Below, in pieces: positions 4,307-58,116 of a DNA stretch of 64,000 bases. The notes under the pieces were generated by a model that was not told the DNA's origin, ran no database searches, and saw only the letters and a program-made list of their open reading frames with translations. The position numbers and the translations under genes are program-made. Numbering within the stretch: the stretch's first letter is position 1; each line of letters begins with the position of its first letter. Origin of the DNA: Nitrososphaerota archaeon (lineage in GTDB: Archaea > Thermoproteota > Nitrososphaeria > Nitrososphaerales > UBA57). Location of the stretch: NCBI GenBank assembly GCA_016871995.1, contig VHBL01000003.1, positions 18,004 to 82,003 of the forward strand, written 5' to 3'.

Positions 4307-4360
4307 GTTTCTATGCGAAATTACAATCTGGTCATAAGGCGTGCGTTTCTTACCTTAGCC

Positions 4361-6011: not shown

Positions 6012-6052
6012 ATGCTCGGTGAAAGGAAGATGTTGCGGTCGCTGACATAAGC

Positions 6053-7780: not shown

Positions 7781-7797
7781 ATTCATAATAACCTTTC
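7781..7797 (+). repeat. Right copy of the 17-bp direct repeat; adjacent 8-bp inverted repeat taagttta/taaactta (7757-7780)
   Basis: Identical to 1299-1315 and lies about 20 nt upstream of the IMPase-family ATG. Confidence 0.8.
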
Positions 7798-7816
7798 CTA
7801 CTGCACTGGAGGGAGA

Positions 7817-34954: not shown

Positions 34955-35353
34955 GTGCCTCACTTGTTTAGAAAATTCTTGCTCGGGAGGACCGATAAGG
35001 AGGATCCTAGAGGAGCAACTTTCAAGGCTACTCTCAATAATAGTGATTATGCATTTGTCACAATTAGAAAAGGAGCATTAAGAGGAGGACACTATCATGA
35101 CATCGAAACAACTCAGATTATTGTATATGGAAAGATAAAGTTTCAATTCGTTGACCCGCGGACCAGAAAACAATCAGAGACTATAGGTCTTCCAATGGAG
35201 ATCATCCAGATACCTGCAGGCATAGCCCATATTGCCGAGGGTCTGGAAGACTCGATGTTCATCGAACCTGCTAAGGTTGGAAAAACCATCGAATACGAAC
35301 CTCAACGAAAAAGAATTAGAGACATGCTTGAACGTTCGAAAACGTTGAGATAA
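34955..35353 (+). CDS. Cupin-fold protein (WxcM/FdtA-like sugar-nucleotide isomerase-type)
   Basis: IRKGALRGGHYH...QIIVYGKIKF is a cupin pattern. GTG start. Confidence 0.5.
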   Translation: MPHLFRKFLLGRTDKEDPRGATFKATLNNSDYAFVTIRKGALRGGHYHDIETTQIIVYGKIKFQFVDPRTRKQSETIGLPMEIIQIPAGIAHIAEGLEDSMFIEPAKVGKTIEYEPQRKRIRDMLERSKTLR

Positions 35354-35439: not shown

Positions 35440-36441
35440 ATGGAAATCATAAAAGTTTCAGATCTTAAGAAGGAGTATTCTGATGGAACCAAAGCCATTC
35501 AGGGGATATCATTCTCTGTAGAGGAGGGAGAATTCTTTGGATTCTTGGGCCCCAATGGAGCAGGGAAGAGCACGACGATCAAAATCCTGACGACTCTATT
35601 GCATAAAACCTCCGGGTCTGTTTCTGTAGGAGGTTATGATATCATCACCAATTCCAAGGCAGTAAGGAAGATGATAGGGGTTCAGAGTCAAGATACAGTT
35701 GTAGATGAAGACCTGACTGGCCGAGAGAACATGATACTGCAGGGTCATCTGCAGCAAATTTACGGAAAGGGTCTCGAGGATCGCGTTAACGAATTATTGA
35801 AGATTGTTGGATTAGAGGATGTAGCCGACAAGCGTGCGGCGTTTTACTCTGGAGGGATGAAGAAGAGGCTTGACCTTGCATCAAGTCTGGTGCATAGTCC
35901 GAAGGTATTGTTTCTTGATGAGCCTACTACAGGCCTCGACCCTCAATCAAGGGCTTCCATATGGTCTTACCTGCAGAAACTCAACAAAGAAGGGATAACG
36001 ATATTTCTGACTACTCAGTACATGGAAGAAGCTGACAGGCTCTGTCAAAGACTTTCAATAATTGATCATGGGCAGATTGTGGCTCAAGGAACGCCAGCAC
36101 ATCTTAAGCAGGAGATTGGAGCCGATACGATAAACCTAGCATTGAATCCTGATGCTAACGGAGGGAGGGATTTGGCCAGAAAGGCTCTTGGCAAGCTAAA
36201 AGGAATCAGTAATATCATCGACTCGGACAACGGCCTGACGGTCTATGCAGAGAACGGTGGGTACATTATTCCTGACATAGTAAGGGCCCTTGACGAATCA
36301 AACATTAGTCCGTCATCATTGAGCCTTTCGACCCCAACTCTCGACGATGTCTTTCTGAAACATACAGGCAGGCGCATCAGGCCCGAAGAGCTTAGGAAGG
36401 ATGCGTCAGCAGGAAGAATGCTAGGTCGCAGGAGGAGGTAA
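35440..36441 (+). CDS. ABC transporter ATP-binding protein (DrrA-like)
   Basis: Walker A GPNGAGKST, signature SGGMKKRL and Walker B LFLDEPT. Confidence 0.9.
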   Translation: MEIIKVSDLKKEYSDGTKAIQGISFSVEEGEFFGFLGPNGAGKSTTIKILTTLLHKTSGSVSVGGYDIITNSKAVRKMIGVQSQDTVVDEDLTGRENMILQGHLQQIYGKGLEDRVNELLKIVGLEDVADKRAAFYSGGMKKRLDLASSLVHSPKVLFLDEPTTGLDPQSRASIWSYLQKLNKEGITIFLTTQYMEEADRLCQRLSIIDHGQIVAQGTPAHLKQEIGADTINLALNPDANGGRDLARKALGKLKGISNIIDSDNGLTVYAENGGYIIPDIVRALDESNISPSSLSLSTPTLDDVFLKHTGRRIRPEELRKDASAGRMLGRRRR

Positions 36442-36442
36442 G

Positions 36443-37210
36443 ATGCCGCTCATTTCCGATACACAATACCTGTTCATAAGATCGTTCAAGAAACTGCTTA
36501 GGAATCCGATACTGCTATTCTTCTCTCTATTCCAGCCAATAATCTTCCTTCTCCTATTTACCCAACTGTTCAGTAGGTTTGCCCAAGTGCCTGGCTTTCC
36601 AGCAGAAAGCTACCTTCTCTTTGCCACACCGGGGATAGTCCTGCAGAATTCGTTTGCAAGCGCCTTCCAGTCTGGAATAGCCATGGTAGACGACCTGAAA
36701 TCTGGATATCTTGAAAAAATGCTTGTCACGCAGGTCAGCAGACCTGCGATATTTCTTGGAAGGATAGCTACTGATATTGTCAGGACAATTATACAATCGC
36801 TGATCATCATGGCTATGGCACTCGCGATGGGGGCATCTCCCATAACAGGCTTAGCGGGGTTGCTGCTAATGTTGCTTACGATATCTCTATTTGGTGTTGC
36901 TTGGTCTGGGATTTCCATCTCTCTGGGCCTAAAGACAAAGAATGCAGAGACCGTCTTTGGAATTGGAGGATTTCTGACCTTTCCATTGCTCTTTATGAGC
37001 ACGGCTCTTACTCCAGCCAGCTTTATGCCCGACTGGATGCAGACAATCTCACAGCTAAACCCTATCAGTTATACGGTCGACGCCCTGCGCGTCATCATGC
37101 TGACAGGCTTCGATTTTGGTGTAATCTTGACGGCATTTGCTGTTGTCGGCTCTATAGGCGTTCTGACACTAGGGGCAGCAATATACCAGTTCAGGAAGAT
37201 TATCGGCTAA
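36443..37210 (+). CDS. ABC-2 type permease
   Basis: Six hydrophobic segments, immediately downstream of the ATPase (1-nt gap). Confidence 0.85.
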   Translation: MPLISDTQYLFIRSFKKLLRNPILLFFSLFQPIIFLLLFTQLFSRFAQVPGFPAESYLLFATPGIVLQNSFASAFQSGIAMVDDLKSGYLEKMLVTQVSRPAIFLGRIATDIVRTIIQSLIIMAMALAMGASPITGLAGLLLMLLTISLFGVAWSGISISLGLKTKNAETVFGIGGFLTFPLLFMSTALTPASFMPDWMQTISQLNPISYTVDALRVIMLTGFDFGVILTAFAVVGSIGVLTLGAAIYQFRKIIG

Positions 37211-37454: not shown

Positions 37455-38357
37455 CTATTTGGCATTAGCCAGCTCTGCAACTGTGGAAATGTTGTTCTTC
37501 AAATCTTCGTCGCTGTAGCTATGCCTCTTCTTGTGGGATTCGATGATAAGATCTGGCATCTTCTGATACCTGAGCACGTCTTTGAGAATACTCTTCAAAG
37601 GCACTCTTCCATATCCAACAAGCATGTGCTGATCTTCTGAACCGTCGTTGTCATTGACGTGCATCTCAAATACCCTTCCCGCTATATTATCTATCAATTT
37701 GCGCTGATAATTTACATCATTTAGTTTCGTCTGGCAGTAGTATACATGACCAGAATTCAAGATCACGCCAATCTTTTTCGGAAGCACAGCAAAATCTCTC
37801 GGGAGAGCGAAAAGGTACCCCCTCTCAGGTCTGTAGTTAAAGTTCTCGATACTAAGTTGGACATCCTTGGCAGCATAATCAAGCAGTTCTTCAATACTCC
37901 TGAGTGAGTTTGCATATGCAATTTTCAGGGGGATAAGATCAGAGGGCGTGACTGGGGAGAATTCCTCCTCCTGAGTGACGACATCTGTAGCGTATCCAGC
38001 ATGAAATGAAAGCACCTTCGCACCTATATCCCTAGCAAAATCAATGCTCCTCTTAAGAGCTTCAACACTATTCTTCCTAGTTTCTTCTATTGAAGATGCC
38101 AGATTGATATAAAAGTCTCGCGAAGGTAGCCATATGCTCTGGTGAATACTGTATTTAATTCTGTATGAGTTCTTTAGATTAAGGGCTCCCCTGACAACTT
38201 CCTTGTATTCCGCTTTTGGCTCTGCAGCACCTATCTGGACAAATGGAGGGGATCCAGCCTCCTCGAATATTTCTACGATTTTGTGTATTTTTGTAAGTAT
38301 TGGTTCTCCCGCATAGCCGTAGAAGATAGTTGAAACCCCGATCATATATTTGGACAA
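37455..38357 (-). CDS. Sugar phosphate isomerase/epimerase (xylose isomerase-like TIM barrel)
   Basis: 300 aa with SIDFARDIGAKVLSFHAGY and EMHVNDNDGSEDQH motifs. Confidence 0.7.
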   Translation of the reverse strand: MSKYMIGVSTIFYGYAGEPILTKIHKIVEIFEEAGSPPFVQIGAAEPKAEYKEVVRGALNLKNSYRIKYSIHQSIWLPSRDFYINLASSIEETRKNSVEALKRSIDFARDIGAKVLSFHAGYATDVVTQEEEFSPVTPSDLIPLKIAYANSLRSIEELLDYAAKDVQLSIENFNYRPERGYLFALPRDFAVLPKKIGVILNSGHVYYCQTKLNDVNYQRKLIDNIAGRVFEMHVNDNDGSEDQHMLVGYGRVPLKSILKDVLRYQKMPDLIIESHKKRHSYSDEDLKNNISTVAELANAK

Positions 38358-38414: not shown

Positions 38415-39368
38415 ATGGTCAAAATCATCGCAGAGCTCTGCCAGAACCATAAGGGCGATATTGGCACCCTAAAGAAGATGGTATGGGAGGCTGCTGAAAA
38501 TGGTGCAACTTACGCGAAAATACAGACAATCTTTGCAGATGACTTGACTAGAAGGGAGAGGTTTGAGGAAGGTACAATAGAGGGAGATGTTGTGAAAGCT
38601 ATCAAAAGGCCCTATGAATCAGAATATGCTAGACTAAAGCCGATGGACCTTGACAGAAAGGCTCATGAAATTTTCCTAAAGGAATGCCAAGCTGCTGGGA
38701 TAAGACCTCTGACTACAATCTTTGCAAGGGCAAGAATTCCATTTGTGCAAGAGTTGGGCTTCAAGGAAGTCAAAGTTGCTAGCTATGATTGTGCAAGTTT
38801 CCCCATGATACATGAGTTAAAGGAAAGATTCAAACATCTTTACATTTCTACTGGTGCAACTTACGATAACGAAATAGAAAAGACGACAAGGATTCTTTCT
38901 GGGCACAGTTTCTCATTTCTTCACTGCATAACCATTTACCCCACACCTTTGAATCAGCTTAACTTGGCAAGGATGGAGTATTTGAGAAAGTTTGCCAAAG
39001 AAGTCGGTTTTAGCGACCATACTCTTTTCGAGAGGGATGGTTTGAAGGCTTCTATAGCAGCAATATATTATGGTGCCCAAGTCATCGAAAGGCACTTTAC
39101 CATACTTGACAAAACGATAACAAAAGACGGCCCAGTTTCTATAAATCCAACGCAGCTAAAAGAACTGGTTGAAACCTCTAAGATGAGCAGGGGCGAACTG
39201 GAGGGCTATACGCGCAAAAACCTACCAGAGTTCGAGCAGATGATAGGTTTGACATCACGCACGCTTTCTCACGAAGAGCTATTGAACAGGGATTATTATA
39301 GAGGAAGGTTTGCCAGCAAGGTAAACGGACAAATAATTTACAACTGGGAGGATAGGACGGTCTTTTGA
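38415..39368 (+). CDS. NeuB-family (sialic/ulosonic acid synthase-like) PEP-condensing enzyme, atypical
   Basis: IIAELCQNHKGD, GATYAKIQT, LHCITIYPTP, GFSDHT and GAQVIERHFT match the NeuB TIM-barrel motifs. Confidence 0.75.
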   Translation: MVKIIAELCQNHKGDIGTLKKMVWEAAENGATYAKIQTIFADDLTRRERFEEGTIEGDVVKAIKRPYESEYARLKPMDLDRKAHEIFLKECQAAGIRPLTTIFARARIPFVQELGFKEVKVASYDCASFPMIHELKERFKHLYISTGATYDNEIEKTTRILSGHSFSFLHCITIYPTPLNQLNLARMEYLRKFAKEVGFSDHTLFERDGLKASIAAIYYGAQVIERHFTILDKTITKDGPVSINPTQLKELVETSKMSRGELEGYTRKNLPEFEQMIGLTSRTLSHEELLNRDYYRGRFASKVNGQIIYNWEDRTVF

Positions 39369-41365
39369 AAAAACGTGTTCTTGCAATAATACCAGCAAGG
39401 GGAGGCTCCAAATCTATTCCAAAGAAAAACATCAAGGAGATTGCTGGTAAGCCTCTCGTAGCCTTCAGTATAGCCGAAGCATTAAGGGCAAAGACACTTT
39501 CGAGGGTCATAGTTTCTTCAGACGATGAAGAAATTCTTCAGATAGCAAGAAAATATGGGGCGGAAACTCCATTTATCCGTCCTAAGCGACTTGCAACGGA
39601 CGATGCGCTTGCAATAGACGTTATGGTTCATGCCATAAAAGAGTGTGAAAGGCAGGAAGGCCAAAGATATGATTATGCTCTAATGTTGCAACCTACTACA
39701 CCAATGCGCACGGCAGAAGATATAGATGAAGCACTAGAGAAACTTGTTTCAAGCAACGCAGATTCTGTGATAAGCGTAGTTAACGTTGGAGCCATTCACC
39801 CACACAGGATGAAGAAGATAGTCAAGGATCAGCTGATAGACTACGCAGATGAAGGTACTGAAAACATGCCGAGGCAGAAGCTTCCTCCTATGTACATAAG
39901 GAATGGTGCAATTTATGCTGCGAAAAGAGACAGCATAGTCAAATCAAAATCGTTCAAGGGTAAGAAATCCCTAGCATACGTGATGTCTGAAGATAGGTCT
40001 GTAAACATTGACAGTAGCCTTGATTGGGTGTTGGCAGAAACTCTGATGCAGAAGATGGACTGGAGTCATGTGAAACCGAGGAATTCTGTACAGATGCCTT
40101 GGAGTTCATGGTATGGTAACGAACTTCTTGACATAGAGCTTCCTTCAAATTGGAATGTATCAGTTGCAGCAATGAGTGATGCAGTGGAACTCTCCGACAA
40201 TGAAATCAAAAAAGCTCTGGCAAGTCCAATTGCGAGTCCTCGTCTCTCCGAACTTGCAAAGGGCAAGAAAACTGTGTGTATAGCAGTTGACGACCTGACA
40301 AAGCCTACCGAAACTTTCAGAATACTGCCACCAGTTATTGATGAATTAAGGAAAGGCGGGATAAAGGACAATGACATTTACTTTCTTACCAGCATTGGCA
40401 CGCATAGACCTCTAACAAGGGATGACATGGTAAAGAAGCTCGGGAGTGAAACTGTTGGAAAGTTTAGGGTTTACAACCATAACGCTTACCAGAACAATGT
40501 ATTGATAGGCAAAACGAGTTTTGGTACACCTGTAGAAATAGACAGGATATTTTTTGAAGCTGACCTGAAGATAGGAATCGGCACTTTGATGCCGCATCCC
40601 TATGCTGGTTTTAGCGGCGGAGGCAAGATAGTCATGCCAGGGCTCGCTAGCATAGATTCTGTTGACATCAATCATAAACCTGTTAACGTTTCTTTGCAGG
40701 GGAGGATAGGGCAGGTTGCCGGAAACTCAAGAAGGGGAGATATAGAAGAGGCAGCAAGAATGGCTGGGTTGCACTTCATTGTAAACACACTTTCAAATTC
40801 AAGAGGCAAGACATGTGCCGCTTTCGCTGGTAGTCCAAAGGAAGCCTTCGCAGAAGCTTCTAGACATGCCTTGAAGGTCTATTCTACAGATGTTCCTTAT
40901 GGTATTGATGTTGGGATATTCAACGCTTTCCCGAGAGATACGTGGTTTCTTCTTTCGCTAAATGCGCTTAACGTTTGGGCCTCAAGGGATCCTGACAAAG
41001 AGATCGTAAGGAGAGGAGGCACGATTGTAATTATCAATGCTTGCCCAGAGGGACTAGGGGAGCACGGGCTTGTTGGAAAAGGGATGCGACAGCACGTGAG
41101 GAGGGACAAGCACGGTACATTCAAAGGGCCGCTTGAGGGGAGAAGAGTGATATTCTTCTCACCAAACGTTCATCCATCTCACGTCTATGACCACTATCCA
41201 GAAGGGGTCTTACTCTTCAATAAATGGGATGATGTTTTAGATGAAATGAAGAAAGAATATGGTAGTGGAACTATGGCCGTCGTTTTTCCATGCGCTCCAT
41301 TGCAGATGGATAAGCATGTCATAGTGCAGGAGAATTTACTGGACGACAGAATACTTGTTTCATAG
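39365..41365 (+). CDS. Fusion protein: N-terminal acylneuraminate/CMP-sugar cytidylyltransferase (NeuA-like) plus C-terminal LarA-like nickel-pincer (NPN) racemase/epimerase domain
   Basis: The N-terminus is AIIPARGGSKSIPKKNI...LQPTTPMR. The C-terminus has DDLTKPT, GTHRP and PHPYAGFSGGGKIVMPG...INH. The spacing His411-x9-Lys421-x15-His437 matches LarA His174/Lys184/His200. Confidence 0.8.
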   Translation: MKKRVLAIIPARGGSKSIPKKNIKEIAGKPLVAFSIAEALRAKTLSRVIVSSDDEEILQIARKYGAETPFIRPKRLATDDALAIDVMVHAIKECERQEGQRYDYALMLQPTTPMRTAEDIDEALEKLVSSNADSVISVVNVGAIHPHRMKKIVKDQLIDYADEGTENMPRQKLPPMYIRNGAIYAAKRDSIVKSKSFKGKKSLAYVMSEDRSVNIDSSLDWVLAETLMQKMDWSHVKPRNSVQMPWSSWYGNELLDIELPSNWNVSVAAMSDAVELSDNEIKKALASPIASPRLSELAKGKKTVCIAVDDLTKPTETFRILPPVIDELRKGGIKDNDIYFLTSIGTHRPLTRDDMVKKLGSETVGKFRVYNHNAYQNNVLIGKTSFGTPVEIDRIFFEADLKIGIGTLMPHPYAGFSGGGKIVMPGLASIDSVDINHKPVNVSLQGRIGQVAGNSRRGDIEEAARMAGLHFIVNTLSNSRGKTCAAFAGSPKEAFAEASRHALKVYSTDVPYGIDVGIFNAFPRDTWFLLSLNALNVWASRDPDKEIVRRGGTIVIINACPEGLGEHGLVGKGMRQHVRRDKHGTFKGPLEGRRVIFFSPNVHPSHVYDHYPEGVLLFNKWDDVLDEMKKEYGSGTMAVVFPCAPLQMDKHVIVQENLLDDRILVS

Positions 41366-41386: not shown

Positions 41387-42097
41387 ATGAAGATTGTCAT
41401 GCTAGCTGCAGGACGCGGAGAGAGACTCGGGCCGCTGACAGACAAGATACCCAAACCATTGATCGAAGTTGCAGGTAGGCCTATTATAGAACACATCCTC
41501 GACTTGTTGATTAAACTGCCTGATGCAAAGGTCGGGATTGTAGTCGGACATTTGGGCGATCAAATAGTAAAAAGACTTGGCTCTGAATACCGTGGCATTA
41601 AGATATCTTATATTTTTCAGGAGCAGATACTGGGCACAGGACATGCTACCCTCCTTGCGCGTAAGTTTATTGGTTCAGACCCGTTTGTTCTATATCTAGC
41701 AGACACCTATATTGTTGATGACTTGCAAAAAATAACCAAAAATCTTACCAAAGGGAAAAGTAACAGGATAGTGGTTTCAAGAGTGAGCAAAAATACGGCA
41801 CTGAACAGCGGTCAGGTCATTCTCTCTGCTGGTAAAGTTGTGGACATAGTTGAAAAACCAGTTAACCTACTTTCAGATGTCGTAGCTTCGGGTATGTACT
41901 ACTTTTATCCGCAGATTCTTCAATATTTGCAACTGCTCTCTGACGGAAAACCGCTTGAGCTTACTAATGGGATCAGAGAACTTCTGAGACATAAGAAAGT
42001 AGAAGCTGTTTGGGCGAAAGCATTTCTTGACATAGGAACTCCAGCTGGGCTGAAGGCTGCCGATGATTTTCTAAAAGGGAAGATGGTTGCAGAATAG
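41387..42097 (+). CDS. hddC: Sugar-1-phosphate nucleotidyltransferase (HddC-like heptose-1-phosphate guanylyltransferase)
   Basis: MLAAGRGERLGPLTDKIPKPLIEVAG is an NTP-transferase motif. The call also rests on operon context. Confidence 0.7.
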   Translation: MKIVMLAAGRGERLGPLTDKIPKPLIEVAGRPIIEHILDLLIKLPDAKVGIVVGHLGDQIVKRLGSEYRGIKISYIFQEQILGTGHATLLARKFIGSDPFVLYLADTYIVDDLQKITKNLTKGKSNRIVVSRVSKNTALNSGQVILSAGKVVDIVEKPVNLLSDVVASGMYYFYPQILQYLQLLSDGKPLELTNGIRELLRHKKVEAVWAKAFLDIGTPAGLKAADDFLKGKMVAE

Positions 42098-43082
42098 AAT
42101 TAAGGTATACGCCCCTCACAGAATAAGCTACTGTGGAGGGGGGACAGACTTTCCATCATTTTACAACCAATATGGCGGTGCCGTCATAAACTGTGCTATC
42201 AACAGGTTTTCAAAAATCTACGCCAGACCTGAGCGCGGTTCGAATATATTTCTTGAAGCAAAAAGAGTAAACGAAACATACTCGGGAAACATGTTAGAGG
42301 TAAAGAACAAGAATAAGCTTTCCATGCCGCTGAAAGCCATTCTTGACTGGAACCAACCGGTACATATGGTAATCGAGAGCGACGTTCCACCGGGAAGCGG
42401 CCTTGGGTCATCTGGAACATTGGCAGTAAATCTGATTAACACGCTTAACTTTCTGAAAAGAGGCAGCACAATCCAGCCGAGTATTCTTGCCGAACACGCT
42501 TATCATTTTGAGGCTTATACATTGGGAAAGGCTGTTGGCAAGCAGGATCACTATGCTGCGGCGTTAGGAGGAATGAACTTCATAGAATTTGGTGCGCAAG
42601 GAGTGAAAGTTAGCCGTTTTGCTACAGAAACTGCGATTGAACTGCAGAAAAGGTGCATACTTTTCTATCTTGGGAAGACTAGAATTGCAGACATAATTCT
42701 GAAAAGGCAGGAAAGAAATGTGGTTCAAAGAAATGAAAGTACGATTGAAGCTTTGAAGGGGATGATAACACTTACCCGCAGAATGAAAAGGTCGATAGAT
42801 AAAAGGAATTTTGGAGAAATTGGATCACTACTTGAAGACGCATGGCTGCTAAAGAAAAAGTACACTACAGGTATATCAAACAAATTCATCGACAAGGTGC
42901 ATACTAGAGCACTGCGATCTGGGGCTACAGGTGCAAAGGTTACTGGAGCCGGAGGTGGCGGCCATTTCTTCGTCTATGCAGAAGCAGATAGACACAGAAA
43001 AATCATAAGGAACCTTAATGATATAGGGTGCGAACATATACCGTTCAAGGTGTGCGAGAGTGGAGCTTGGGTTGAAAAGTGA
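42087..43082 (+). CDS. hddA: GHMP sugar kinase (HddA-like D-glycero-D-manno-heptose-7-phosphate kinase)
   Basis: The GHMP motif PPGSGLGSSG and the C-terminal GAKVTGAGGGG. Confidence 0.7.
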   Translation: MQNRIKVYAPHRISYCGGGTDFPSFYNQYGGAVINCAINRFSKIYARPERGSNIFLEAKRVNETYSGNMLEVKNKNKLSMPLKAILDWNQPVHMVIESDVPPGSGLGSSGTLAVNLINTLNFLKRGSTIQPSILAEHAYHFEAYTLGKAVGKQDHYAAALGGMNFIEFGAQGVKVSRFATETAIELQKRCILFYLGKTRIADIILKRQERNVVQRNESTIEALKGMITLTRRMKRSIDKRNFGEIGSLLEDAWLLKKKYTTGISNKFIDKVHTRALRSGATGAKVTGAGGGGHFFVYAEADRHRKIIRNLNDIGCEHIPFKVCESGAWVEK

Positions 43083-43626
43083 AACTAAGAGGTTTCTGGT
43101 AGATTCTAAGAGTGCAATAGATTCCTTCCTAAATAATCCTGCTGTTGAACGATTTATTTCAATTCTGAAAGACGCAAGACAGCGCCGAAAAAACGTGTTT
43201 GTATTCGGTAATGGAGGAAGCTCCGCTACTGCATCGCATTTTGTGTGCGACCTTCTGAAGACATCAATTGTAAAAGGCAAGCCTAGGTTCAAAGCCTACT
43301 CGCTTACCGATAATGTACCTGTCATGACAGCTTGGTCGAATGACGTCTCTTACAGCGATATCTTTGCAGAGCAGTTGAAGAACTTTCTTGAATCAGGCGA
43401 CATAGCGATAGCCATAAGCGGGAGCGGAAACTCTCCAAACGTGCTTAGAGGAACGGAATTTGCAAAAGAAAATGGCGCAGTCACAGTTGGATTGACTGGC
43501 AACTCTGGCAAATTGGCTGGAATGGTTGATATATGTATCAAAGTACCTTCTAGTAATATCCTCCTAATAGAAGGCGCACATTCTGTCCTTTTGCACTATG
43601 TCACAGAAGTTCTACGAGAAGCATGA
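43060..43626 (+). CDS. gmhA: Phosphoheptose isomerase (SIS domain)
   Basis: VFVFGNGGSSATASHFVCDL and AISGSGNSPNV. Confidence 0.8.
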   Translation: MELGLKSETKRFLVDSKSAIDSFLNNPAVERFISILKDARQRRKNVFVFGNGGSSATASHFVCDLLKTSIVKGKPRFKAYSLTDNVPVMTAWSNDVSYSDIFAEQLKNFLESGDIAIAISGSGNSPNVLRGTEFAKENGAVTVGLTGNSGKLAGMVDICIKVPSSNILLIEGAHSVLLHYVTEVLREA

Positions 43627-44069
43627 TACCTGCTGTATTCGTGGATAGGGATGGAACTCTAGTAGAACAGAAGGACGGAAGTTACATTTCGTCAATAAAT
43701 GAAGTCAAGTTCATAAATCAGAACGTCTATCCGCTTTTAAGCTGGTTCCAGAAGGAAGGCTTCCTTATTATCATAGTTACGAACCAAGCCGGGATAAACA
43801 AGGGCTTGGTGACTTGGGAGCAGGTACGCAGAGTAAATGACTATGTTGTCAGAGAACTCGACAAGCACAAGGTAAAGGTAACAGATGTTTACACATGCCC
43901 CCACAGAATAGAGGAAAACTGCAACTGTAGGAAGCCTCAGCCCGGCTTGATACTTAGGGCAAGCAGAGAGCACAGAATTGACCTTGCTAACAGTGTGATA
44001 ATAGGAGACAGGGATATGGATGTGGAGGCAGGATTCCGGGCAGGTGTGAAGAGAGCCATAAAGATATGA
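43623..44069 (+). CDS. gmhB: D,D-heptose 1,7-bisphosphate phosphatase (HAD)
   Basis: FVDRDGTL, VTNQAG and the zinc motif CPHRIEENCNCRKPQPG. Confidence 0.8.
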   Translation: MIPAVFVDRDGTLVEQKDGSYISSINEVKFINQNVYPLLSWFQKEGFLIIIVTNQAGINKGLVTWEQVRRVNDYVVRELDKHKVKVTDVYTCPHRIEENCNCRKPQPGLILRASREHRIDLANSVIIGDRDMDVEAGFRAGVKRAIKI

Positions 44070-44845
44070 GCGTTAGCGTAATCACACCTGTCCATGGCAA
44101 AAAAGAGTCGTATGCGTCGCTGATAGAGGAAATTGGACAGCACCTAGCAGAACAATCTGCAAAACCAGCTGAATGGTTGTTGGTCTGCGACACAAATTCG
44201 ACATGGCTCAAAGACCTTACTCTGCCTCCATTCGCCGTAGTCCTTGTTTCCCCACAGAACAATATATCGTTGAAGAGGAATATAGCTTTGGACGAGGCTA
44301 CGGGGGATTTCATATTCTTCCTTGATTCTGATCAAAGACCTGAAACTCCAGAGCTCATTGCCGATTGCTTAACAATGACAAGGGAAGGTTACGATATACT
44401 GCTAATCCCAGAGAAGTTCTCATATAGAGGCCCGTACCTCAAGAGATGTTATCATCATCTGCGCGGTCTCTACTGGAAGTACTCGGGCGAGGGCATACCA
44501 AGATTTTTCAGAAGAAGCAGGATAGGAAGTGCCAGATATGATACCGTTCATCTGCACTTTGAGGATCTCAAGTTTTATGAATCTGTTAGGAAGGGTGCAA
44601 AAGAAGGCAGTGCCTCAAAATACATAATTCATGATGAGGCATATCAGATATACGGAAACCTGAGAAAAGCGAGGATAGCGCAGAAGCAGAAAACTAAACA
44701 TCAAATAGAATCACCATTTCGTCTCAGCACCAGCACGATATTGAAGGAGACGCCATTAAGCATGTTGCCAGGGGTAATTCTAATTTTGGTTCTACGTACG
44801 CTAGCAAAAAGACTGCTCCCTGTAGCTGGCGATACGTCTCGTTAA
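44066..44845 (+). CDS. Family 2 glycosyltransferase
   Basis: VSVITPVHGK and the DxD-like FLDSDQ. Its start overlaps the gmhB stop by 4 nt. Confidence 0.65.
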   Translation: MSVSVITPVHGKKESYASLIEEIGQHLAEQSAKPAEWLLVCDTNSTWLKDLTLPPFAVVLVSPQNNISLKRNIALDEATGDFIFFLDSDQRPETPELIADCLTMTREGYDILLIPEKFSYRGPYLKRCYHHLRGLYWKYSGEGIPRFFRRSRIGSARYDTVHLHFEDLKFYESVRKGAKEGSASKYIIHDEAYQIYGNLRKARIAQKQKTKHQIESPFRLSTSTILKETPLSMLPGVILILVLRTLAKRLLPVAGDTSR

Positions 44846-44851
44846 ATGGCC

Positions 44852-45901
44852 CTAGAAGAACCAAACCACGAGTAGCGCGAAACCAAATACAGCATAAGAG
44901 CCTGCAAGAAGCTTAAGCATCTTTCCCTTTAGTATGAAGCAAGGCATTCTGTAGAGCGACGGAGCCAATGAAATAAATCTAAAGTATCCTGAAAAATATG
45001 AATATGCTGGCTGTATTATTGAACCAAGCGCTATCAAGCATAGGCTGAATGTATCTACAAGCTTTTTCCTGACTGCAAAATAGATTGATAGAACTATCCC
45101 AAGGAATACCGACCAAACAACTATCTCATTAAGAATCAGATTTATTCCACTAATTTGGAATGTACCAGTAGCCCCAAAAAATCTATTGTAGAGAAATGAG
45201 CCGAAGGGAATTCCCAGCTGAGGAGGCAAATCACTCCCTCTTGCGAACTCGATAAAGTGCTCTATAGTGAACCTTGATATTAGATAATAACCAAAACCTG
45301 CAATTGTAGCTAGAATTATTGATAGGTACGGCAGGAATTTTTTCCCTTTTGCAAGTGCAAAGTATGGCAGTGCAAAAATAAAAAAGTCAGGTCTGGCAAT
45401 TACTGCCAATGAAAGAACTAGAGATGCTGGAAGAAACTTGTCTTTTCGGAACAGTAGAAGACCTCCAAGCATAAGCATATAGTACAGAGGCTCGTTCATT
45501 CCTCCGTGTATTGAAACCAGCAGAATGGGGTTGAAAGCATAAAAGATCGTTGCAATTGCAAAACCATCTCCCCTAGTCATTTTGTAGAATATTGCAACGC
45601 TTGAAGAGAATGCGACAACGTTAATGACTTCCATAGTAACTGCAGTTATAAAGGAATTTCCTGCGGCTACCAGCGAAACTAAAAGGGGGTACAGGAATGT
45701 GGCGTACCTGAAGCCAGAATCTACTGGAGGGTCTTTGAATGGAGCAAGCGCAATTTTGTAATAGGAGATACCGTCCGTGTTAGCTTCACTTGCAAAGTTG
45801 AATACAGTCTTCCCACTCAATAATCCAATAACATAAAAGGCAAAATTCAAGATAATAAAAGCGGCAAAGACTGTGAAACTGTTGATTCTAAACGAGGGCA
45901 A
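44852..45901 (-). CDS. Polytopic membrane protein (GT-C-type glycosyltransferase or glycan polymerase candidate)
   Basis: 349 aa with about 9-10 hydrophobic helices, sitting in a glycan cluster. Confidence 0.55.
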   Translation of the reverse strand: MPSFRINSFTVFAAFIILNFAFYVIGLLSGKTVFNFASEANTDGISYYKIALAPFKDPPVDSGFRYATFLYPLLVSLVAAGNSFITAVTMEVINVVAFSSSVAIFYKMTRGDGFAIATIFYAFNPILLVSIHGGMNEPLYYMLMLGGLLLFRKDKFLPASLVLSLAVIARPDFFIFALPYFALAKGKKFLPYLSIILATIAGFGYYLISRFTIEHFIEFARGSDLPPQLGIPFGSFLYNRFFGATGTFQISGINLILNEIVVWSVFLGIVLSIYFAVRKKLVDTFSLCLIALGSIIQPAYSYFSGYFRFISLAPSLYRMPCFILKGKMLKLLAGSYAVFGFALLVVWFF

Positions 45902-45920
45902 TTTTAATCTGAACCAAAGG

Positions 45921-47054
45921 CTACATGGTATTAGTCTTTGCTTTTATTTGATCTATGGCCTTCTCCATGTTCTTCTGAAAAGCAGCCCAAGTGTAGTTTT
46001 CTTCGACCCTTTTCCTCCCCTTTTTGCCCATCTTTTTTCTTAGATTCGCATCACTAATCAAGATTGAAATCTTTGTAGCCCATTCTTTTGGATTTTCTTC
46101 AACGACATAGCCAGTTTCTCCATCAAGAATTGTTTCAGAAGGGCCTCCAATGTTTGACGCGATAACTGGCTTACCAGAAGCCATCGCCTCAACTGGCCCG
46201 AAGCCATAATGTTCCCCAGTCGGCGTGTACAAAAATATAGAGCAATTGCGGTAAAGCTCTAGCAATTCCTTATCCGAAACGTTGGTCAGGATTTTAACGT
46301 CGTTTCCTAATCCTTTGCTGCGAACCTTTTCTTTCAACACATCGGCATAAGACTCGAAGCCCCGTTGAACAGTACCAGCTATTATAAGGGGAACTGCGTC
46401 TCTCGATTTCTTTAGTTCGGCAAGTGCATCTAAAGCAAGTTCGAGATTTTTATTGGGCATTATCCTGTTAACGCTGAGCAGGAAACCTTCATCATTTTCA
46501 CTATAAGCAAACCGCATTGTATCGACTCCGGGGTAAGCAATTATCCCGTCTCTCGAAAACGCCCTTTTTATAGCATCAAGTGTGAAACCCGAGTTGCAAG
46601 TTACAACATCACCCCCTTCGAAGCCTCGCTTTTCCGCCCTGTCTATCAATAAATGCAATATTCGCCTCAGATTATCCCCTTTTTTGACAAGGTACTTCTC
46701 AGGATGGTGGCAGTAGATTATTGAAGGTCTGTACATATGCGCAAGATAGTAGCTGGAGCTAAAGACGAAAAGGTCAGGTCTGTACTTTGAAAGACAATAT
46801 TGCATCATCTTCTTTGAAGTTTGATAAGCTGCTATGGCTCTGAACATGCCGAAGAAAGTCTTTCTACCTCCTGATGCGAAGACGGTTTCTTTCTTGAACT
46901 CTTCAAATGACGTCTTTGGATCGTAAAACGCTGTAAAATAGGCAACATCGTGACCAACGTTCTTCAATGAGCTCCCGAGCCCAAGCACGAGTCTCTGTGC
47001 TCCCGTTCTCATCGAAATATCATAGTGTATTATTGCTATTTTCATGCAGAGCAC
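45921..47054 (-). CDS. GT4-family glycosyltransferase
   Basis: The E-x7-E region is EHYGFGPVEAMASGKPVIASNIGGPSE. The likely true start is MKIAIIHY at 47045. Confidence 0.85.
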   Translation of the reverse strand: MLCMKIAIIHYDISMRTGAQRLVLGLGSSLKNVGHDVAYFTAFYDPKTSFEEFKKETVFASGGRKTFFGMFRAIAAYQTSKKMMQYCLSKYRPDLFVFSSSYYLAHMYRPSIIYCHHPEKYLVKKGDNLRRILHLLIDRAEKRGFEGGDVVTCNSGFTLDAIKRAFSRDGIIAYPGVDTMRFAYSENDEGFLLSVNRIMPNKNLELALDALAELKKSRDAVPLIIAGTVQRGFESYADVLKEKVRSKGLGNDVKILTNVSDKELLELYRNCSIFLYTPTGEHYGFGPVEAMASGKPVIASNIGGPSETILDGETGYVVEENPKEWATKISILISDANLRKKMGKKGRKRVEENYTWAAFQKNMEKAIDQIKAKTNTM

Positions 47055-47984
47055 TTATTCAACCGTCTGTCTGTACATGTCGATTAGTTTCTTGCCGACC
47101 TTCCATTTATCGTGATTTTCAAGTATGAACTCTCTGTTTCTTCTCTGCTCAGCTTTCAGTTTCTTCCTATCTGCAAGCTCGGCAATCCTTTCTCCCATGT
47201 TATTCCTGTGCCTGTAATCTATTGTTGCCAATCCGCAGGACATCGACTCCAGACACGCCTTGCTCAATGAAAACACTGTCTGCCTGTCGATATAGACATC
47301 ATATTTCTTGAGAACTTCGTGCATATCTGAATACTTGAAAGGTCTTCCAGTAAAAACATCTACATCAAAGCCATTTCTCCGCAAACCTTCAACAATATTG
47401 TCAGGAACCTTATCGTACCACAGGTTGAAACCTATAGCTTTGGGTTTTTCATTTTCATAGCTCTTTGGCGAGAACCTCTCTGTATCAATAGGGTTTGCCA
47501 AGTATTCAGCGTCCTCTCGAACTTGCTTAGCTAATGGCAACAGATCAGGCGTAGAAACTATCACCTTCCTTGCAGCTTTTAGATTGCCTCTAATCATCCA
47601 CCCCCAGTTGCTCAAATCCTTGCTACGCTTCATGAACTCTTTGTCTAACAATCCAAAAAGGTCAGTGCCATGGCAGTGTAATAGATGGATAGTTATTCCA
47701 AAAACTCTGAATGCAAAAGCGTCCTGCATTGCATAGTTCACATGTTTAATGCCGGTGCTCCTTAAAGCATTCCAGAAAACTCCAATAGTCTTACCCACGA
47801 TCGATCTCCTCCTTGGTAGATACCTTACTTTGATTCCATATGATTTCAGAACAAGCGAGAGTTCGTAGCCAACCCATGCAGCATCGTTCACAATCGAAAC
47901 TTCGTAATTGAAAGGTCTATCAAGTGTTCTCTGCAGAGATACCACACTTTGCAGAAAAATTAACTCACTATTGTCTCTTTCCAC
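47055..47984 (-). CDS. Divergent GT-B-like glycosyltransferase
   Basis: 309 aa, abutting the GT4 gene. Only weak GT-B-like features are visible (ACLESMSCGLATI). Confidence 0.5.
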   Translation of the reverse strand: MERDNSELIFLQSVVSLQRTLDRPFNYEVSIVNDAAWVGYELSLVLKSYGIKVRYLPRRRSIVGKTIGVFWNALRSTGIKHVNYAMQDAFAFRVFGITIHLLHCHGTDLFGLLDKEFMKRSKDLSNWGWMIRGNLKAARKVIVSTPDLLPLAKQVREDAEYLANPIDTERFSPKSYENEKPKAIGFNLWYDKVPDNIVEGLRRNGFDVDVFTGRPFKYSDMHEVLKKYDVYIDRQTVFSLSKACLESMSCGLATIDYRHRNNMGERIAELADRKKLKAEQRRNREFILENHDKWKVGKKLIDMYRQTVE

Positions 47985-48975
47985 TTGCAGTTTGTAGAAG
48001 ATGGAGAACCTTTCTGTACCAAGCTATAGTCATTTCCAAGCCCTGTTCAAGTGTGAATTTTGGAACCCAGCCAAGAACCTCTGTAGTTAACTTAATGTCT
48101 GCAACTAGTCTAGGCAAGTCTGCAGGTCTTCCCTTCTTAAACACAATTTGAGATTTTGACGCTGCAAGTTTCTTTATCTTCTCTGCAAGTTCTTTGATAG
48201 AAGTGTCGACACCCGTACCTATGTTGAATGTCATGCCCTTCACGCCTTCCTTTCTGCGAATGGCCTCTGCATAAGCCCTGACAGCATCTTTAACATACGT
48301 CAAATCCCTTGTCTGCTCACCATCGTTATGAACGACAATCGGTTCGTCAAGCAAGGCTTTTGTGATGAAGGCTGGCACGACTGCTGGATAACCTCTGTAC
48401 GTGTTGCTCTGGTTCTCGCCGTAAGTGTTAAAGTTTCTGATGGTACATGTGGGATATTTGTACCAAAGATGTATTACCCTGACGTGACTTTCACCAGCAA
48501 GTTTTGTCACGGCATAGGTGCTCTTTGGCTTTGTTATATGATCTACATCCATTGGAACATGAACCGGGTCGCCGTAAACTTCTGGCGATGACGCAAAAAC
48601 GAAGAATGGCTGAGTTTTCGTCTTTAGTAGTTCCTGCGTCAATTTGAATACGCCGTATTCATTGAAATTAAAATATTCCCAAGGCTTGTCCATAGACTCT
48701 GGTATTGAAACTAAAGCGGCGAAGTGTACAATAGCATCAACATTTAGGTCGTCGATACTCTTGGCAGTAAGATCCCTATAGTCCTGTTTTAGCATGGTGA
48801 ACTTCTTTGCAAGTGCATTCTTGTCCTCAATAATGTTGAAAGGATCTAGCGGGAAATCTTCGGAGCGCATATAGGTGTCCAACCCTACAATGCTCTCAAC
48901 TTTGTCGTCATTGAGCAAAATGTTAACAAAGTTAGAGCCGTAAAAACCCGCTGCGCCTGTTACTAAGACACGCAT
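47968..48975 (-). CDS. NAD-dependent sugar-nucleotide epimerase/dehydratase (extended SDR)
   Basis: VLVTGAAGFYGSN and the YAVTK (YxxxK) motif. Confidence 0.85.
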   Translation of the reverse strand: MRVLVTGAAGFYGSNFVNILLNDDKVESIVGLDTYMRSEDFPLDPFNIIEDKNALAKKFTMLKQDYRDLTAKSIDDLNVDAIVHFAALVSIPESMDKPWEYFNFNEYGVFKLTQELLKTKTQPFFVFASSPEVYGDPVHVPMDVDHITKPKSTYAVTKLAGESHVRVIHLWYKYPTCTIRNFNTYGENQSNTYRGYPAVVPAFITKALLDEPIVVHNDGEQTRDLTYVKDAVRAYAEAIRRKEGVKGMTFNIGTGVDTSIKELAEKIKKLAASKSQIVFKKGRPADLPRLVADIKLTTEVLGWVPKFTLEQGLEMTIAWYRKVLHLLQTASGKRQ

Positions 48976-49025
48976 TGCAAAACAATCCTTTTGACGCTCT
49001 GGTTACTTTAGCGTATTAATTTTTG

Positions 49026-49733
49026 TCATAGCACTAACCTATGGCATTCAAAGGCTTCTGCAGCTTTGACACCTACTTGCCGCCCTCTACTTTCAGCTAT
49101 ACGCACTATGTTTTCTGCACTTCGTGGATGTGGCTCCTTTCTTATTTGTGATGAATAAAGTTTCAACGCTTCAATCTTAGTTCTAATTTCTGAACCTATG
49201 TCAACAAAGAAGTTTGGGTTGAATACGGCCCTGCTCCATGAAATTTCTGGTTGCTCATATGACAACACTATTTTCGGTATAGGTTTTGATTTTCCCCCGA
49301 CAGGTCTGCAAGCTGTAAATGCCGCTTCTGCAACAGCAACATGATCCTGGTTGGTAGAGTGCAAGTATGGTATGCATACCATCGTTGGTTTAATCGCAGA
49401 CAGAGAGACCTTCTCTCCCGATTCTATGATATCAACAAGTTTTTTCTTTGGAACTTGATCTAAACACAGATGATATTTGTCTCCAGGCAAAGCCAGATAG
49501 TAGCTGTCAAATCTCAGAAACTTCGCTACCCTTTCAAGCTCTTTGATTCTGACTTTGGTGTCGCTCTTGCCTCCATACTGTGCAATTGAACCTACCGTCA
49601 TTACAAGAACATGGACTTCCCCTCCAGCTTTTTTGACTTTTGGAATTAGGCCTCCGCATCCAAGAACCTCGTCATCGGGGTGAGGAGCTACTACCAGAAG
49701 TCTCTGCCAAGCAAGGTCTAGCGACATGGCCAA
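49026..49733 (-). CDS. PIG-L / LmbE-family N-acetylsugar deacetylase
   Basis: VVAPHPDDEVLGCGG and HSTNQDH motifs. Confidence 0.8.
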   Translation of the reverse strand: MAMSLDLAWQRLLVVAPHPDDEVLGCGGLIPKVKKAGGEVHVLVMTVGSIAQYGGKSDTKVRIKELERVAKFLRFDSYYLALPGDKYHLCLDQVPKKKLVDIIESGEKVSLSAIKPTMVCIPYLHSTNQDHVAVAEAAFTACRPVGGKSKPIPKIVLSYEQPEISWSRAVFNPNFFVDIGSEIRTKIEALKLYSSQIRKEPHPRSAENIVRIAESRGRQVGVKAAEAFECHRLVL

Positions 49734-50489
49734 CTACTTTTTCGCAAGTATCCCGAGAACAACCTTATGAGTAACAAACGTAGATTTCTTATTGAAATAT
49801 TCATCCAACAATGATTCAAATTTGCTCCTTGCTCTTTCGTTGAAAAGGGTGTAAGAGTTCCAGTAATTCAACACCGATTTTCTGTTCGGAAATGTTATCG
49901 GGTTCCTGAATATCGATGTCTTGACTGCCTCAAAGTACTTCTTGAAAGTCGGCAACGCTGTGTTGGACATGAATTGAGTGTTCTCTATGAAGTTGCTCGG
50001 TAGAGGGGCAACTTTGGCGTGTAGATTGGCAAGTTCTTTGTTATTACCTTCAGTAGGGCCACATACGAATACTCTACCTCCTTTCTTCAATAATGAGTAT
50101 ATGTCAGAAACCGTCTTGTCTATGTCCTTTGAATAATAGATCGCAAATGATGACGCAATGGCATCGAATCTGTCTTTCCCCAACACCTCAGCTAACTCTT
50201 CCATACCGCACTTTTTGACCCTAATTGAAACCTTAGCCTTCTTTGCAGCTTCCTCCGACCCTTCCAACAGTTCCTCTGAAATATCAACCCCGAATGCTAC
50301 GCCTGTCTTTCCAACAATCTTGCCATATGGAATAAGCTGCTTCCCACTACCGCAACCAATATCAAGAATCTTCTCCCCCCTCTTAAGATCTAGATTCTTC
50401 AATATCCAATCATTCACTTCATACTTACCAAATCGATCATGTGTGGTTATCCTAATGCTCAGGGCTTGTGCTTCGTTAACGTCTTTCAA
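49734..50489 (-). CDS. Class I SAM-dependent methyltransferase
   Basis: ILDIGCGSGK motif I and an FDAIASSF-type motif. Confidence 0.8.
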   Translation of the reverse strand: MKDVNEAQALSIRITTHDRFGKYEVNDWILKNLDLKRGEKILDIGCGSGKQLIPYGKIVGKTGVAFGVDISEELLEGSEEAAKKAKVSIRVKKCGMEELAEVLGKDRFDAIASSFAIYYSKDIDKTVSDIYSLLKKGGRVFVCGPTEGNNKELANLHAKVAPLPSNFIENTQFMSNTALPTFKKYFEAVKTSIFRNPITFPNRKSVLNYWNSYTLFNERARSKFESLLDEYFNKKSTFVTHKVVLGILAKK

Positions 50490-51585: not shown

Positions 51586-52768
51586 CTAGTATAGATAATC
51601 TCTGTTCGACGCTTCTGAGATTATTGTAATCCCTGGTCTGTCTAATTCAGGCCGTCTGGATTTTAGATTACTGTCATCTCTTTGGGACACGACTACTGGA
51701 TATGTACGCTTTCCAACCAGATCGTCCTTTGCAACATGGAGAGCCAGGCATAAAGCCCAGAATTGGTCATCATGCCTGTTTTCTGGGTGCTGATATTTCA
51801 TTGTACCTGCTGTTGAATAGACCCGCTCCTGTTCCTGTATCTGGATTTTCAGTTCCTCGGCTCCTTTCCTTGGAAGTTTCAAGCGCTTCTGCTGGAGGAG
51901 CATAAGGAGAAATTGAACCATGTCGTGCTTGGACTGGGCTGTAAATGCCATTCCTTCAACAGGTATGTATTTTGCGTCATATTGCTCGATAACGGCTTCT
52001 CCAACAGTACTCTTGTCCAGCCCTAAATTTTCCCATTTGTACTTTTCGTAGAGTGCCTCTGTATCTTGTATAATTGTGTTGTAATCTACATGGGGCCACT
52101 GTTTTACTCCTACTACTCGTGCTATTGACTCATCAGAATCGTCCTGCTCTTCTATTCGTATGATGACCAGAGCTGTAAAGTCTCTGCGCTTGGCTAGATC
52201 TTGGCCTGCGTAATAATCGCTCATATTTTGTCCAACTCGTAGTCTGCTAAACTCCCATCGATCAGTTCTGGAGGTACTGCCGCATTCTGCACGTTGAGGA
52301 AATTACACTCGTACTCTTGGCAAAATGATGGGCCTAGGGCGATCTTCTCTTGCTCTATCTCTTCTGGGTCTATCAGGCCCGGTGCCACATGAATGGGAGG
52401 ATGAATTTTCTGACCGAGTCATCATTGCTGTATAGCCTGTAGAAGAAGCCTCTCTGCCCGTTCGGAGTTGAAACTAGGACGAAATCTCCTTGTGTGTTGA
52501 TTAGTGTTGGCCTTAAGGCTGTGTAAATGGTTTCGTCGTTCAGTCTTATGAAATGCGCCGCTTCATCTAGGTAGACTGCTTTGACGCGATCAAAACCTCT
52601 TAGAGATTGTGCTGTACTTGGCAGGGAGAATATTTCGCAGCCATTTTTGAGGACCAGATTATCAGATTTTGTCTTTGCTATCTCTGACTCCAATATAGAA
52701 AGGTTCGGAAGGATGATAGATCGTTTCCAGAATTTTTCATACATGCACTGAATATCAATGCAAGCCAA
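51586..52768 (-). pseudogene. Terminase large subunit remnant (N-terminally truncated, two frame breaks)
   Basis: The ATPase Walker B region is AVYLDEAAHF...VSTPNGQRGFFY (52373..52768). The middle piece, in a second frame, reads ...FCQEYECNF... (52221-52372). The RNaseH-like nuclease region is GQDLAKRRDFTALVI...HDDQFWALCLA (51586..52224). Confidence 0.8.
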
Positions 52769-58036: not shown

Positions 58037-58116
58037 TCGACATACTTCGAGCCAAGGAATCTTATTTGCTTTTAAATATCTACGATATCTTTTTAGAAAT
58101 CTTAAACGTATTATTG

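Follow-up and report, generated by a model that had tools for sequence, protein, structure and literature searches.

A NeuA-like domain joined to a complete LarA fold in a Nitrososphaerota archaeon: architecture, distribution and possible function

Why would an enzyme which activates an acidic sugar with cytidine triphosphate (CTP) carry, on the same polypeptide, a domain related to lactate racemase? This question is raised by a gene found in a stretch of 64,000 nucleotides (nt) of contig VHBL01000003.1 from a Nitrososphaerota archaeon, referred to below as the window. The gene encodes a fusion protein of 666 amino acids (aa), in which a NeuA-like domain is joined to a complete LarA fold, both halves being complete folds according to the structural model. 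Characterised enzymes of the LarA family act on free 2-hydroxy acids of central or fermentative metabolism, and a link to activation with cytidine monophosphate (CMP) points to a different use. We propose, with a probability of roughly 0.55, that the fusion is a bifunctional CMP-ulosonate synthetase and epimerase of the nickel-pincer nucleotide (NPN) type, and that it would act in the synthesis of a surface glycan.

Architecture of the fusion protein

Homologues were compared in an alignment of 23 fusion proteins (A1), and the loci considered are labelled L001, L071, L081 and L085-L092. The fusion gene, the gene preceding it and the positions discussed below are as follows.

38415..39368, + strand: NeuB-family phosphoenolpyruvate (PEP)-condensing synthase, short form without SAF domain, 317 aa (Pfam NeuB PF03102, residues 22-256, E 6e-49)
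39365..41365, + strand: fusion gene, 666 aa, TTG start
39365..40054, + strand: N-terminal CMP-ulosonic-acid synthetase (NeuA/PseF-like) domain, residues 1-230 (Pfam CTP_transf_3, residues 7-185, E 9e-23)
40004-40006, + strand: codon of N214, the equivalent of D209 in NmCSS
40055..40108, + strand: inter-domain linker, residues 231-248, with the family-conserved HVKPxNS...PWKSWYGNE (A1)
40109..41365, + strand: C-terminal complete LarA-fold domain, residues 249-666, and stop codon (Pfam Lar_N PF09861, residues 250-440, E 1e-54)
40403..40405, + strand: codon of His347, corresponding to the catalytic His108 of LarA
40595..40675, + strand: segment with His411 (H174 of LarA), Lys421 (K184, the NPN tether) and His437 (H200, the nickel ligand)
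40949..40963, + strand: L529-L530-S531-L532-N533, in place of the LarA helix motif Y294-Q295-x-V297-K298, which binds the carboxylate and the 2-hydroxyl group
41090..41122, + strand: basic loop Q/H-x-V-R-R-D-K-H-G-T-F, residues 576-586, in place of the LarA pocket signature T353...I362

The two open reading frames (ORFs) had been described in the original prediction with the coordinates given above, and both of them, together with every motif quoted from them, were found in the sequence; the matches to CTP_transf_3 and Lar_N likewise agree with the two-domain architecture proposed there. The TTG start of the fusion overlaps the TGA stop of the NeuB-family gene by 4 nt (tTTGA; junction ...gtc ttt tga aaa...), as had also been noticed before, and a search of the frame upstream of the P-loop revealed no start codon other than TTG 39365. 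Among NCBIfam models, PseF covers residues 6-228 and the LarA match spans residues 250-570. An AlphaFold2 model of the fusion, built on 23 homologues, reached a predicted local distance difference test score (pLDDT) of 86.5 and a predicted template modelling score of 0.83 for the whole protein, with pLDDT of 84-88 in the linker.

The NeuA-like half matches 6IFD by sequence (E 3e-35), and its fold matches the structures of CMP-sialic acid synthetases with a template modelling (TM) score of about 0.86 in Foldseek. Residues R12, S15, K21, Q109/T111, R170/Q171, N180, Y184 and D216 of the fusion align, against 1EYR and 6IFD, with what we take to be the catalytic set of NmCSS (R12, S15, K21, Q104, T106, R165, Q166, N175, Y179 and D211). 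The fold, the P-loop, the QPT motif, the PRQxLP motif and the second metal-binding Asp are thus shared with CMP-nonulosonic acid synthetases (NeuA/CSS 1EYR and 6IFD, CMP-Pse synthetase 9FTB and CMP-Kdn synthetase 9T4Z), whereas the additional C-terminal LarA domain of about 420 aa and the replacement of the first metal-binding Asp, D209, by Asn distinguish the fusion from them. The PseF model TIGR03584 gave 170 bits against a cut-off of 205.7, so neither an equivalog-level assignment nor a sugar specificity can be given to this half; KdsB models scored far under their cut-offs.

In the LarA half, Foldseek aligned 429-445 columns of the model with the full-length LarA structures 9EIA, 9EID and 8EZF (TM normalised to the target, 0.82-0.85), and the best match by sequence was the malate racemase Mar2 (6D6Z, E 2e-48). 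Pfam LarA_C gave no match on the fusion, and the sequence models end at about position 321 of 415. The idea of a truncated LarA, to which this end point might lead, was rejected because the structural alignment covers the whole LarA fold.

The cofactor-binding and catalytic residues of this half are preserved. The codons at 40595, 40625 and 40673 encode residues 411, 421 and 437, with the H-x9-K-x15-H spacing noticed previously, and homology of this triad to H174, K184 and H200 of LarA, which that spacing had suggested, was corroborated by two gap-free pairings. In the HMMER alignment, '...lmpHpyagfsgggKivmpglasidsvdinH' of the fusion is paired without gaps with 'iesHffagfsggrKsvlpgiasyktimanH' of Lactobacillus plantarum LarA (5HUQ); MAFFT alignment with full-length L. 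plantarum LarA (plasmid NZ_CP055122) gave the same triad and, in addition, the correspondence of H347 with H108, D310 with D72 and K313 with R75. H347, H411, K421 and H437 are invariant in A1, as is D310, while position 313 is occupied by Lys in archaeal members and by Arg in the others. The LarA positions responsible for cofactor binding and catalysis are also retained in about 100 relatives.

The fold and these residues place the fusion within the LarA superfamily, outside all of its characterised subgroups. With L. plantarum LarA (5HUQ), Mar2 (6D6Z) and LarA_Ip (9EIA) it shares the full two-domain fold, the Lys that tethers NPN, the His that ligates nickel, both catalytic His residues and the equivalents of D72 and R75. 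It differs from them in its fusion to a cytidylyltransferase, in the L/L/N pocket, in the I220 to Arg change, in the RRDKH loop and in scoring below the cut-off of every curated subgroup.

Distribution and genetic linkage of the fusion

A search of 5.8 billion protein clusters from ENA, JGI, NCBI and Logan yielded 27 clusters of full-length fusions, 47-100% identical, whose carriers are mostly Nitrososphaerota metagenome-assembled genomes (MAGs), with a few bacteria-like contigs. The fusion protein of the window was present in identical form on 6 contigs, which derive from several sequencing runs. In a set of 1.84 billion representatives at 50% identity, the best 150 matches included a single full-length fused one, which indicates that the NeuA-LarA architecture is rare; among GTDB species representatives, the fusion was found in one Thaumarchaeota MAG (L001). 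The original prediction knew of no characterised example of this combination. Full-text searches of the literature gave no description in which LarA or DUF2088 is connected with a cytidylyltransferase or with sialic or nonulosonic acids; the sole match was Kerou et al. (PMC8397731), where a LarA of ammonia-oxidising archaea is read as a sign of lactate utilisation. The combination has nevertheless been annotated automatically in databases: two of the fusion clusters bear the JGI name 'nickel-dependent lactate racemase/CMP-N-acetylneuraminic acid synthetase', and members are named by NCBI 'lactate racemase domain-containing protein' (Nitrososphaerota, Thaumarchaeota or Nitrososphaerales archaeon).

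A NeuB gene was present at all seven distinct fusion loci (window/L081, L001, L085, L086, L087, L088 and L089). Two of these, L085 and L088, lie on bacteria-like contigs and encode fusion members 47-49% identical; their clusters are different, but contain NeuB genes with SAF. Unfused versions in neighbouring genes were found as well. In L071 (Omnitrophica), an unfused LarA homologue of 389 aa is flanked on one side by a gene for a glycosyltransferase family 2 (GT2)-CTP_transf_3 protein and on the other by one for a CTP_transf_3-NeuB-SAF protein. In L091, 119 bp separate the end of a CTP_transf_3 gene (254 aa) from the unfused LarA gene (52% identical) that follows it downstream. The link to a NeuB-type ulosonic-acid pathway, proposed initially for the window, is therefore conserved.

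The PEP-condensing enzyme of the L091 cluster is DAHP_synth_1 (KdsA type), which means that LarA is linked to ulosonic acids made from PEP generally, beyond NeuB. At positions 4526-9239 of L091, this enzyme and a shikimate-dehydrogenase-like protein stand in place of NeuB; the cluster also includes three genes for CTP_transf_3 and one for a LarA that stands alone and falls in the same clade. GT2-CTP_transf_3 fusions were seen at three loci, L071 (9287-10675), L085 (12022-13416) and L091 (1315-2688), and the CTP_transf_3-NeuB-SAF gene of L071 (11801-13444) is a triple fusion. Such arrangements suggest that ulosonic-acid clusters tend to join CMP activation to neighbouring steps. In a neighbour-joining tree of LarA domains, the fused and stand-alone forms are interleaved, which indicates that fusion or fission happened repeatedly.

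The NeuB-family protein encoded upstream of the fusion aligns in its SDH and ERHF metal-binding His motifs with NmNeuB and PseI (8H2C, 2WQP, 1XUU), and it remains under the equivalog cut-offs of both families (164 versus 400 bits for NeuB, 136 versus 340 bits for PseI). No SAF domain was matched by Pfam in this protein, and its alignments with these proteins stop where the SAF region begins, or close to that point. The C-terminus had earlier been described as non-standard, and the missing SAF domain and the length of 317 aa versus about 349 aa account for that description. On the other hand, what had been called an unusual insertion amounts to indels of 1 residue and 4 residues relative to pseudaminic acid synthase 8H2C, that is to ordinary loop variation. 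NeuB proteins devoid of SAF also occur in L001, L086, L087 and L089.

Possible reaction of the LarA half and competing explanations

In the proposed pathway, the SAF-less NeuB-type synthase would condense PEP with an aldose to give a 3-deoxy-2-ulosonic acid, which the NeuA-like domain of the fusion would then activate with CTP to form a CMP-sugar. The LarA-fold domain may invert, in a redox-neutral manner, one of the carbons of this sugar acid that bear a hydroxyl group, either on the free acid before its activation or on the CMP-ester afterwards. Inversion would proceed by proton-coupled hydride transfer to an NPN cofactor, with which the domain is presumably loaded and which would be tethered at Lys421, with His437 as the predicted nickel ligand and His347 and His411 as the putative acid/base pair.

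Several observations weigh against this proposal, among them those concerning the substrate pocket. In the complex of LarA_Ip with D-lactate, the carboxylate is bound by Arg73(75), Gln295, Lys298 and two His residues, and the 2-hydroxyl group by His107 and Tyr294; K298 has been treated as catalytic in LarA (PMC7583248). In the fusion of the window, the positions of Y294 and Q295 are occupied by Leu and that of K298 by Asn, and across all fusion members the three positions read L/I, L/M/Q and N, respectively. A segment ALNVW is inserted after the L529-N533 stretch, and the position of I220 is taken by R456. The signature T353/P355/D356/W358/T359/A360/I362 of LarA is changed to Q/H-V-R-(R)-D-K-H-(G)-T; in A1, R579, R580, D581 and H583 of this basic loop are nearly invariant, and G584 and F586 are invariant. 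Residues 579-583, with pLDDT below 50, form the sole low-confidence loop of the LarA domain in the AlphaFold2 model. As judged from the alignments, the half of the carboxylate clamp that belongs to the N-domain is kept, and the half contributed by the C-domain is remodelled and more basic. Replacement of Y294, Q295 and K298 and the gain of the basic loop imply that the substrate is probably held differently from small 2-hydroxy acids, and a large and strongly anionic compound appears likely. The NCBIfam LarA model scored 203 bits against a cut-off of 460, and no model of a characterised LarA subgroup in NCBIfam (LAR, MAR, LarAH10, hexonate epimerase and others) reached its cut-off, the best one (MAR LarAH6) giving 250 versus 500 bits.

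The chemistry expected at both active sites also raises difficulties. The metal site D209-x-D211 is only half preserved, since the fusion reads N214-I-D216; position 214 is Asn in the fusion family and Ser in two members, and Asp in the aligned solved CMP-nonulosonic acid synthetases. Furthermore, C2 of a 3-deoxy-2-ulosonic acid carries no hydrogen, and thus the classical 2-hydroxy-acid reaction cannot apply at the C1/C2 end. The target may instead be another carbinol, which would be consistent with the loss of Y294, Q295 and K298, or the distal hydroxy-acid end, provided that the aldose is a uronic acid, as the dehydrogenases present in three loci hint; a reaction of the LarA half other than epimerisation is possible, too. 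More specifically, but only tentatively and with considerable doubt, an NPN epimerase might act on a CMP-activated, or about-to-be-activated, ulosonic acid of 8-10 carbons, at a ring or side-chain carbinol or at the distal hydroxy-acid end of an ulosaric acid.

The genes for cofactor synthesis and some of the close relatives of the LarA half provide the remaining unfavourable points. Neither Pfam (60 ORFs) nor tblastn with L. plantarum LarB, LarC1, LarC2 and LarE detected larB, larC or larE in the window, as had been stated from inspection of the sequence, and tblastn did not find them in the related loci either, which were covered with flanks of about 10 kb and amount to 1.57 Mb; a scan of every locus for LarC motifs was likewise negative. 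Close stand-alone relatives of the LarA half in L090 and L092 have neither NeuA nor NeuB nearby, and this context is also absent from distant LarA relatives at 32-40% identity. Homologues of larB and larC, with a larA homologue, are nevertheless present in MAGs of sediment ammonia-oxidising archaea (AOA; Kerou et al., PMC8397731, supplement), which indicates that NPN maturation exists in this phylum. The AOA LarA is 32% identical to that of L. plantarum and is encoded on a contig other than that of NeuA/NeuB (PMC8397731), and so it is probably a different, stand-alone homologue. It was interpreted as a sign of 'lactate utilisation' (PMC8397731), whereas in the fusion clade the neighbouring genes point to a part in the synthesis of glycans.

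Could the LarA half simply racemise lactate, glycerate, malate or another small 2-hydroxy acid in its free form, which is later attached to the sugar as a substituent, the fusion serving only co-regulation or complex formation? Every characterised LarA homologue uses free 2-hydroxy acids, the carboxylate binders of the N-domain are kept (K/R313 as the R75 equivalent, H347 and H411), methyltransferase and acyl-modifying genes occur in the clusters, and nonulosonic acids can bear hydroxyacyl substituents. We consider this explanation improbable, however, as the Y-Q-x-x-K helix motif, present in the aligned L. plantarum LarA, Mar2 and LarA_Ip, is lost in the fusion, and no acyl-activating ligase is conserved beside it. 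Moreover, fusion to the CMP-transferase, or strict adjacency with it, recurs in distant lineages, which points to a shared substrate. Different NPN-dependent hydride chemistry might also be envisaged, for instance intramolecular redox isomerisation of a 2-keto-4-hydroxy to a 2-hydroxy-4-keto form of the ulosonic acid. One LarA clade is indeed named 'NPN-dependent hydroxyacid isomerase' in NCBIfam, and the open-chain NeuB product, being a 2-keto acid, would resemble the pyruvate intermediate of LarA. Yet both catalytic His residues are retained, and such a pair is the mark of racemases and epimerases, which transfer protons on two faces; judging from NeuA chemistry, moreover, the fused NeuA domain could not convert a product reduced at C2 into a CMP-linked glycosyl donor. 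This makes isomerisation an unlikely candidate.

It is also conceivable that the LarA half works without NPN, as a structural, oligomerisation or ligand-sensing module comparable to the non-catalytic C-terminal domain of animal CMP-sialic acid synthetase. The lack of lar maturation genes near any locus searched and the non-canonical residues on the substrate side would fit such a role, and NeuA enzymes with C-terminal domains of this non-catalytic kind do occur. On the other hand, D310, K/R313, H347, H411, K421 and H437 are strictly conserved among members 47-100% identical and among stand-alone relatives, which would be difficult to account for in a protein that has no cofactor, and the maturation genes are usually unlinked to larA homologues, with larB and larC present in related archaea; a cofactor-free module therefore seems quite unlikely to us. 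Finally, the concern that assembly or a frameshift had joined two genes artificially, for which the adjacent separate genes in L071 and L091 might speak, has practically no standing: the same protein appears on the 6 contigs from different runs, the 27 clusters come from independent assemblies in four data sources, their linker is conserved and their reading frame unbroken, and the structural model is confident through the junction.

A bifunctional CMP-ulosonate synthetase and NPN-type epimerase would have partial precedents. In group B Streptococcus and E. coli K1, NeuA carries a C-terminal SGNH O-acetylesterase (CMP-Neu5Ac synthetase/O-acetylesterase), which removes O-acetyl groups. There, as we propose for the fusion, the activating enzyme is covalently joined to a domain that edits the same sugar, but in place of an SGNH domain, the fusion has a LarA-fold, putatively hydride-transferring epimerase. 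GalE-type epimerases of nucleotide sugars, members of the short-chain dehydrogenase/reductase (SDR) family, use tightly bound NAD+; the proposed analogy with them would be that a carbinol of an activated sugar is epimerised through hidden redox, while fold and cofactor are unrelated. We know of no NPN enzyme acting on a nucleotide sugar. Among LarA-like proteins, enzymes with a single His (9Q3J, 9Q2U/9Q3K) have been proposed to act on carbohydrates (PMC12611868), and like the fusion they have a substrate pocket that is remodelled and lie among genes related to carbohydrates. Unlike the fusion, which keeps both His residues, they lack one catalytic His, form octamers and adjoin glycolytic and sugar-transport genes; the similarity is distant (E 4e-17; 17-18% identity in Foldseek).

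The context of the fusion is that of ulosonic-acid and glycan synthesis, in contrast to the organic-acid metabolism in which characterised LarA proteins are found, and the recurrence, in archaea and several bacteria-like lineages, of a LarA domain joined to the CMP-activating enzyme or encoded next to it suggests a role for the nickel-pincer cofactor in the stereochemistry of surface-glycan sugars. If confirmed, this role would extend the range of substrates on which NPN enzymes act, involve nickel in cell-envelope biogenesis of the globally abundant Nitrososphaerota and lead one to expect a new ulosonic acid. Should the more doubtful proposal of action on a CMP-activated or about-to-be-activated ulosonic acid prove true as well, the fusion would be the first NPN enzyme in nucleotide-sugar or glycan biosynthesis, and a previously unseen stereoisomer of an ulosonic acid would be implied on the surface of AOA.

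Gene neighbourhood and other features of the window

The genes which surround the fusion in the window are listed below (assignments in 41387-44845 by Pfam/NCBIfam).

34955-35353, + strand: ORF of 132 aa with a weak Polysacc_synt_C match, a possible flippase remnant
35440-37210, + strand: ABC-2 exporter pair
37455..38357, - strand: xylose-isomerase-like TIM-barrel protein (AP_endonuc_2, PF01261, E 4e-21), divergent
41387-42097, + strand: NTP_transferase
42087-43082, + strand: GHMP kinase, HddA-like
43060-43626, + strand: SIS/GmhA-like protein
43623-44069, + strand: HAD/GmhB-like protein
44066-44845, + strand: GT2
44852..50489, - strand: convergent glycan block, comprising an unannotated protein of 349 aa, a glycosyltransferase of family 4 (GT4), an unannotated protein of 309 aa, an SDR epimerase/dehydratase, a PIG-L deacetylase and an S-adenosylmethionine (SAM) methyltransferase

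The fusion is part of a tight operon of seven genes (short NeuB, fusion, NTP-transferase, GHMP kinase, SIS isomerase, HAD phosphatase and GT2), which overlap or are separated by gaps of no more than 21 nt. As far as sequence similarity tells, the genes at 41387..44845 constitute a module of the NDP-heptose type plus a glycosyltransferase. This module was considered as an obligatory partner of the fusion and rejected, for it is absent from L086, L087 and L089 and occurs in the window only. A more constant companion is the TIM-barrel protein, whose sole meaningful solved relative is the uncharacterised MJ1311 of M. jannaschii (3WQO, E 8e-9): the triad of TIM barrel, short NeuB and fusion recurs in L001, L086, L087 and L089, so that the TIM barrel is found in all five archaeal loci.

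In the convergent block, the GT4 gene, its unannotated neighbour and the SDR, PIG-L and methyltransferase genes recur beside the fusion in L086; no informative solved relatives were found for the two unannotated proteins. Upstream of the triad, L086, L087 and L089 carry a TagF-like Glyphos_transf gene and a CBS-bearing UDPG/GDP-Man dehydrogenase at the position held in the window by the 132-aa ORF and the exporter pair, which indicates that the upstream part of the cluster has been exchanged. A horizontally acquired island was considered and is not supported, the GC content of 0.42-0.45 being like that of the flanks. The window's remaining genes are in line with an archaeal origin, as shown by exosome Csl4, TrmB regulators and S13/S4/S11 of archaeal type.

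The gene at 58066-59145 (+ strand), which lies downstream of the operon at a distance of about 17 kb, encodes a Kelch-repeat protein that also matches NanM (N-acetylneuraminate mutarotase). NanM has been reported in sediment AOA (Kerou et al., PMC8397731), and the Kelch/NanM protein may be related to the handling of sialic-acid-like sugars. Just past the glycan cluster, an ORF of 212 aa (51586-52224, - strand) matches only the C-terminal RNaseH-like nuclease domain of a phage large terminase (Terminase_6C, E 2e-11) and has the look of a provirus remnant. Two ORFs at 53020-54021 and 54003-55109 (both + strand), overlapping by 19 nt, match positions 1-215 and 230-336 of the pyrroloquinoline quinone (PQQ) beta-propeller profile; the pair looks like one gene split by a frameshift, be it a pseudogene or a sequencing error. 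At the other end of the window, the stretch 2001-8000 is rich in GC (0.53-0.61 versus about 0.44 elsewhere) and may be foreign DNA. It holds a TrmB-like ORF (2036-3052) overlapping an ORF with a B12-binding domain (2668-3780), as well as an unannotated ORF of 390 aa and a NAD-binding protein of 429 aa.

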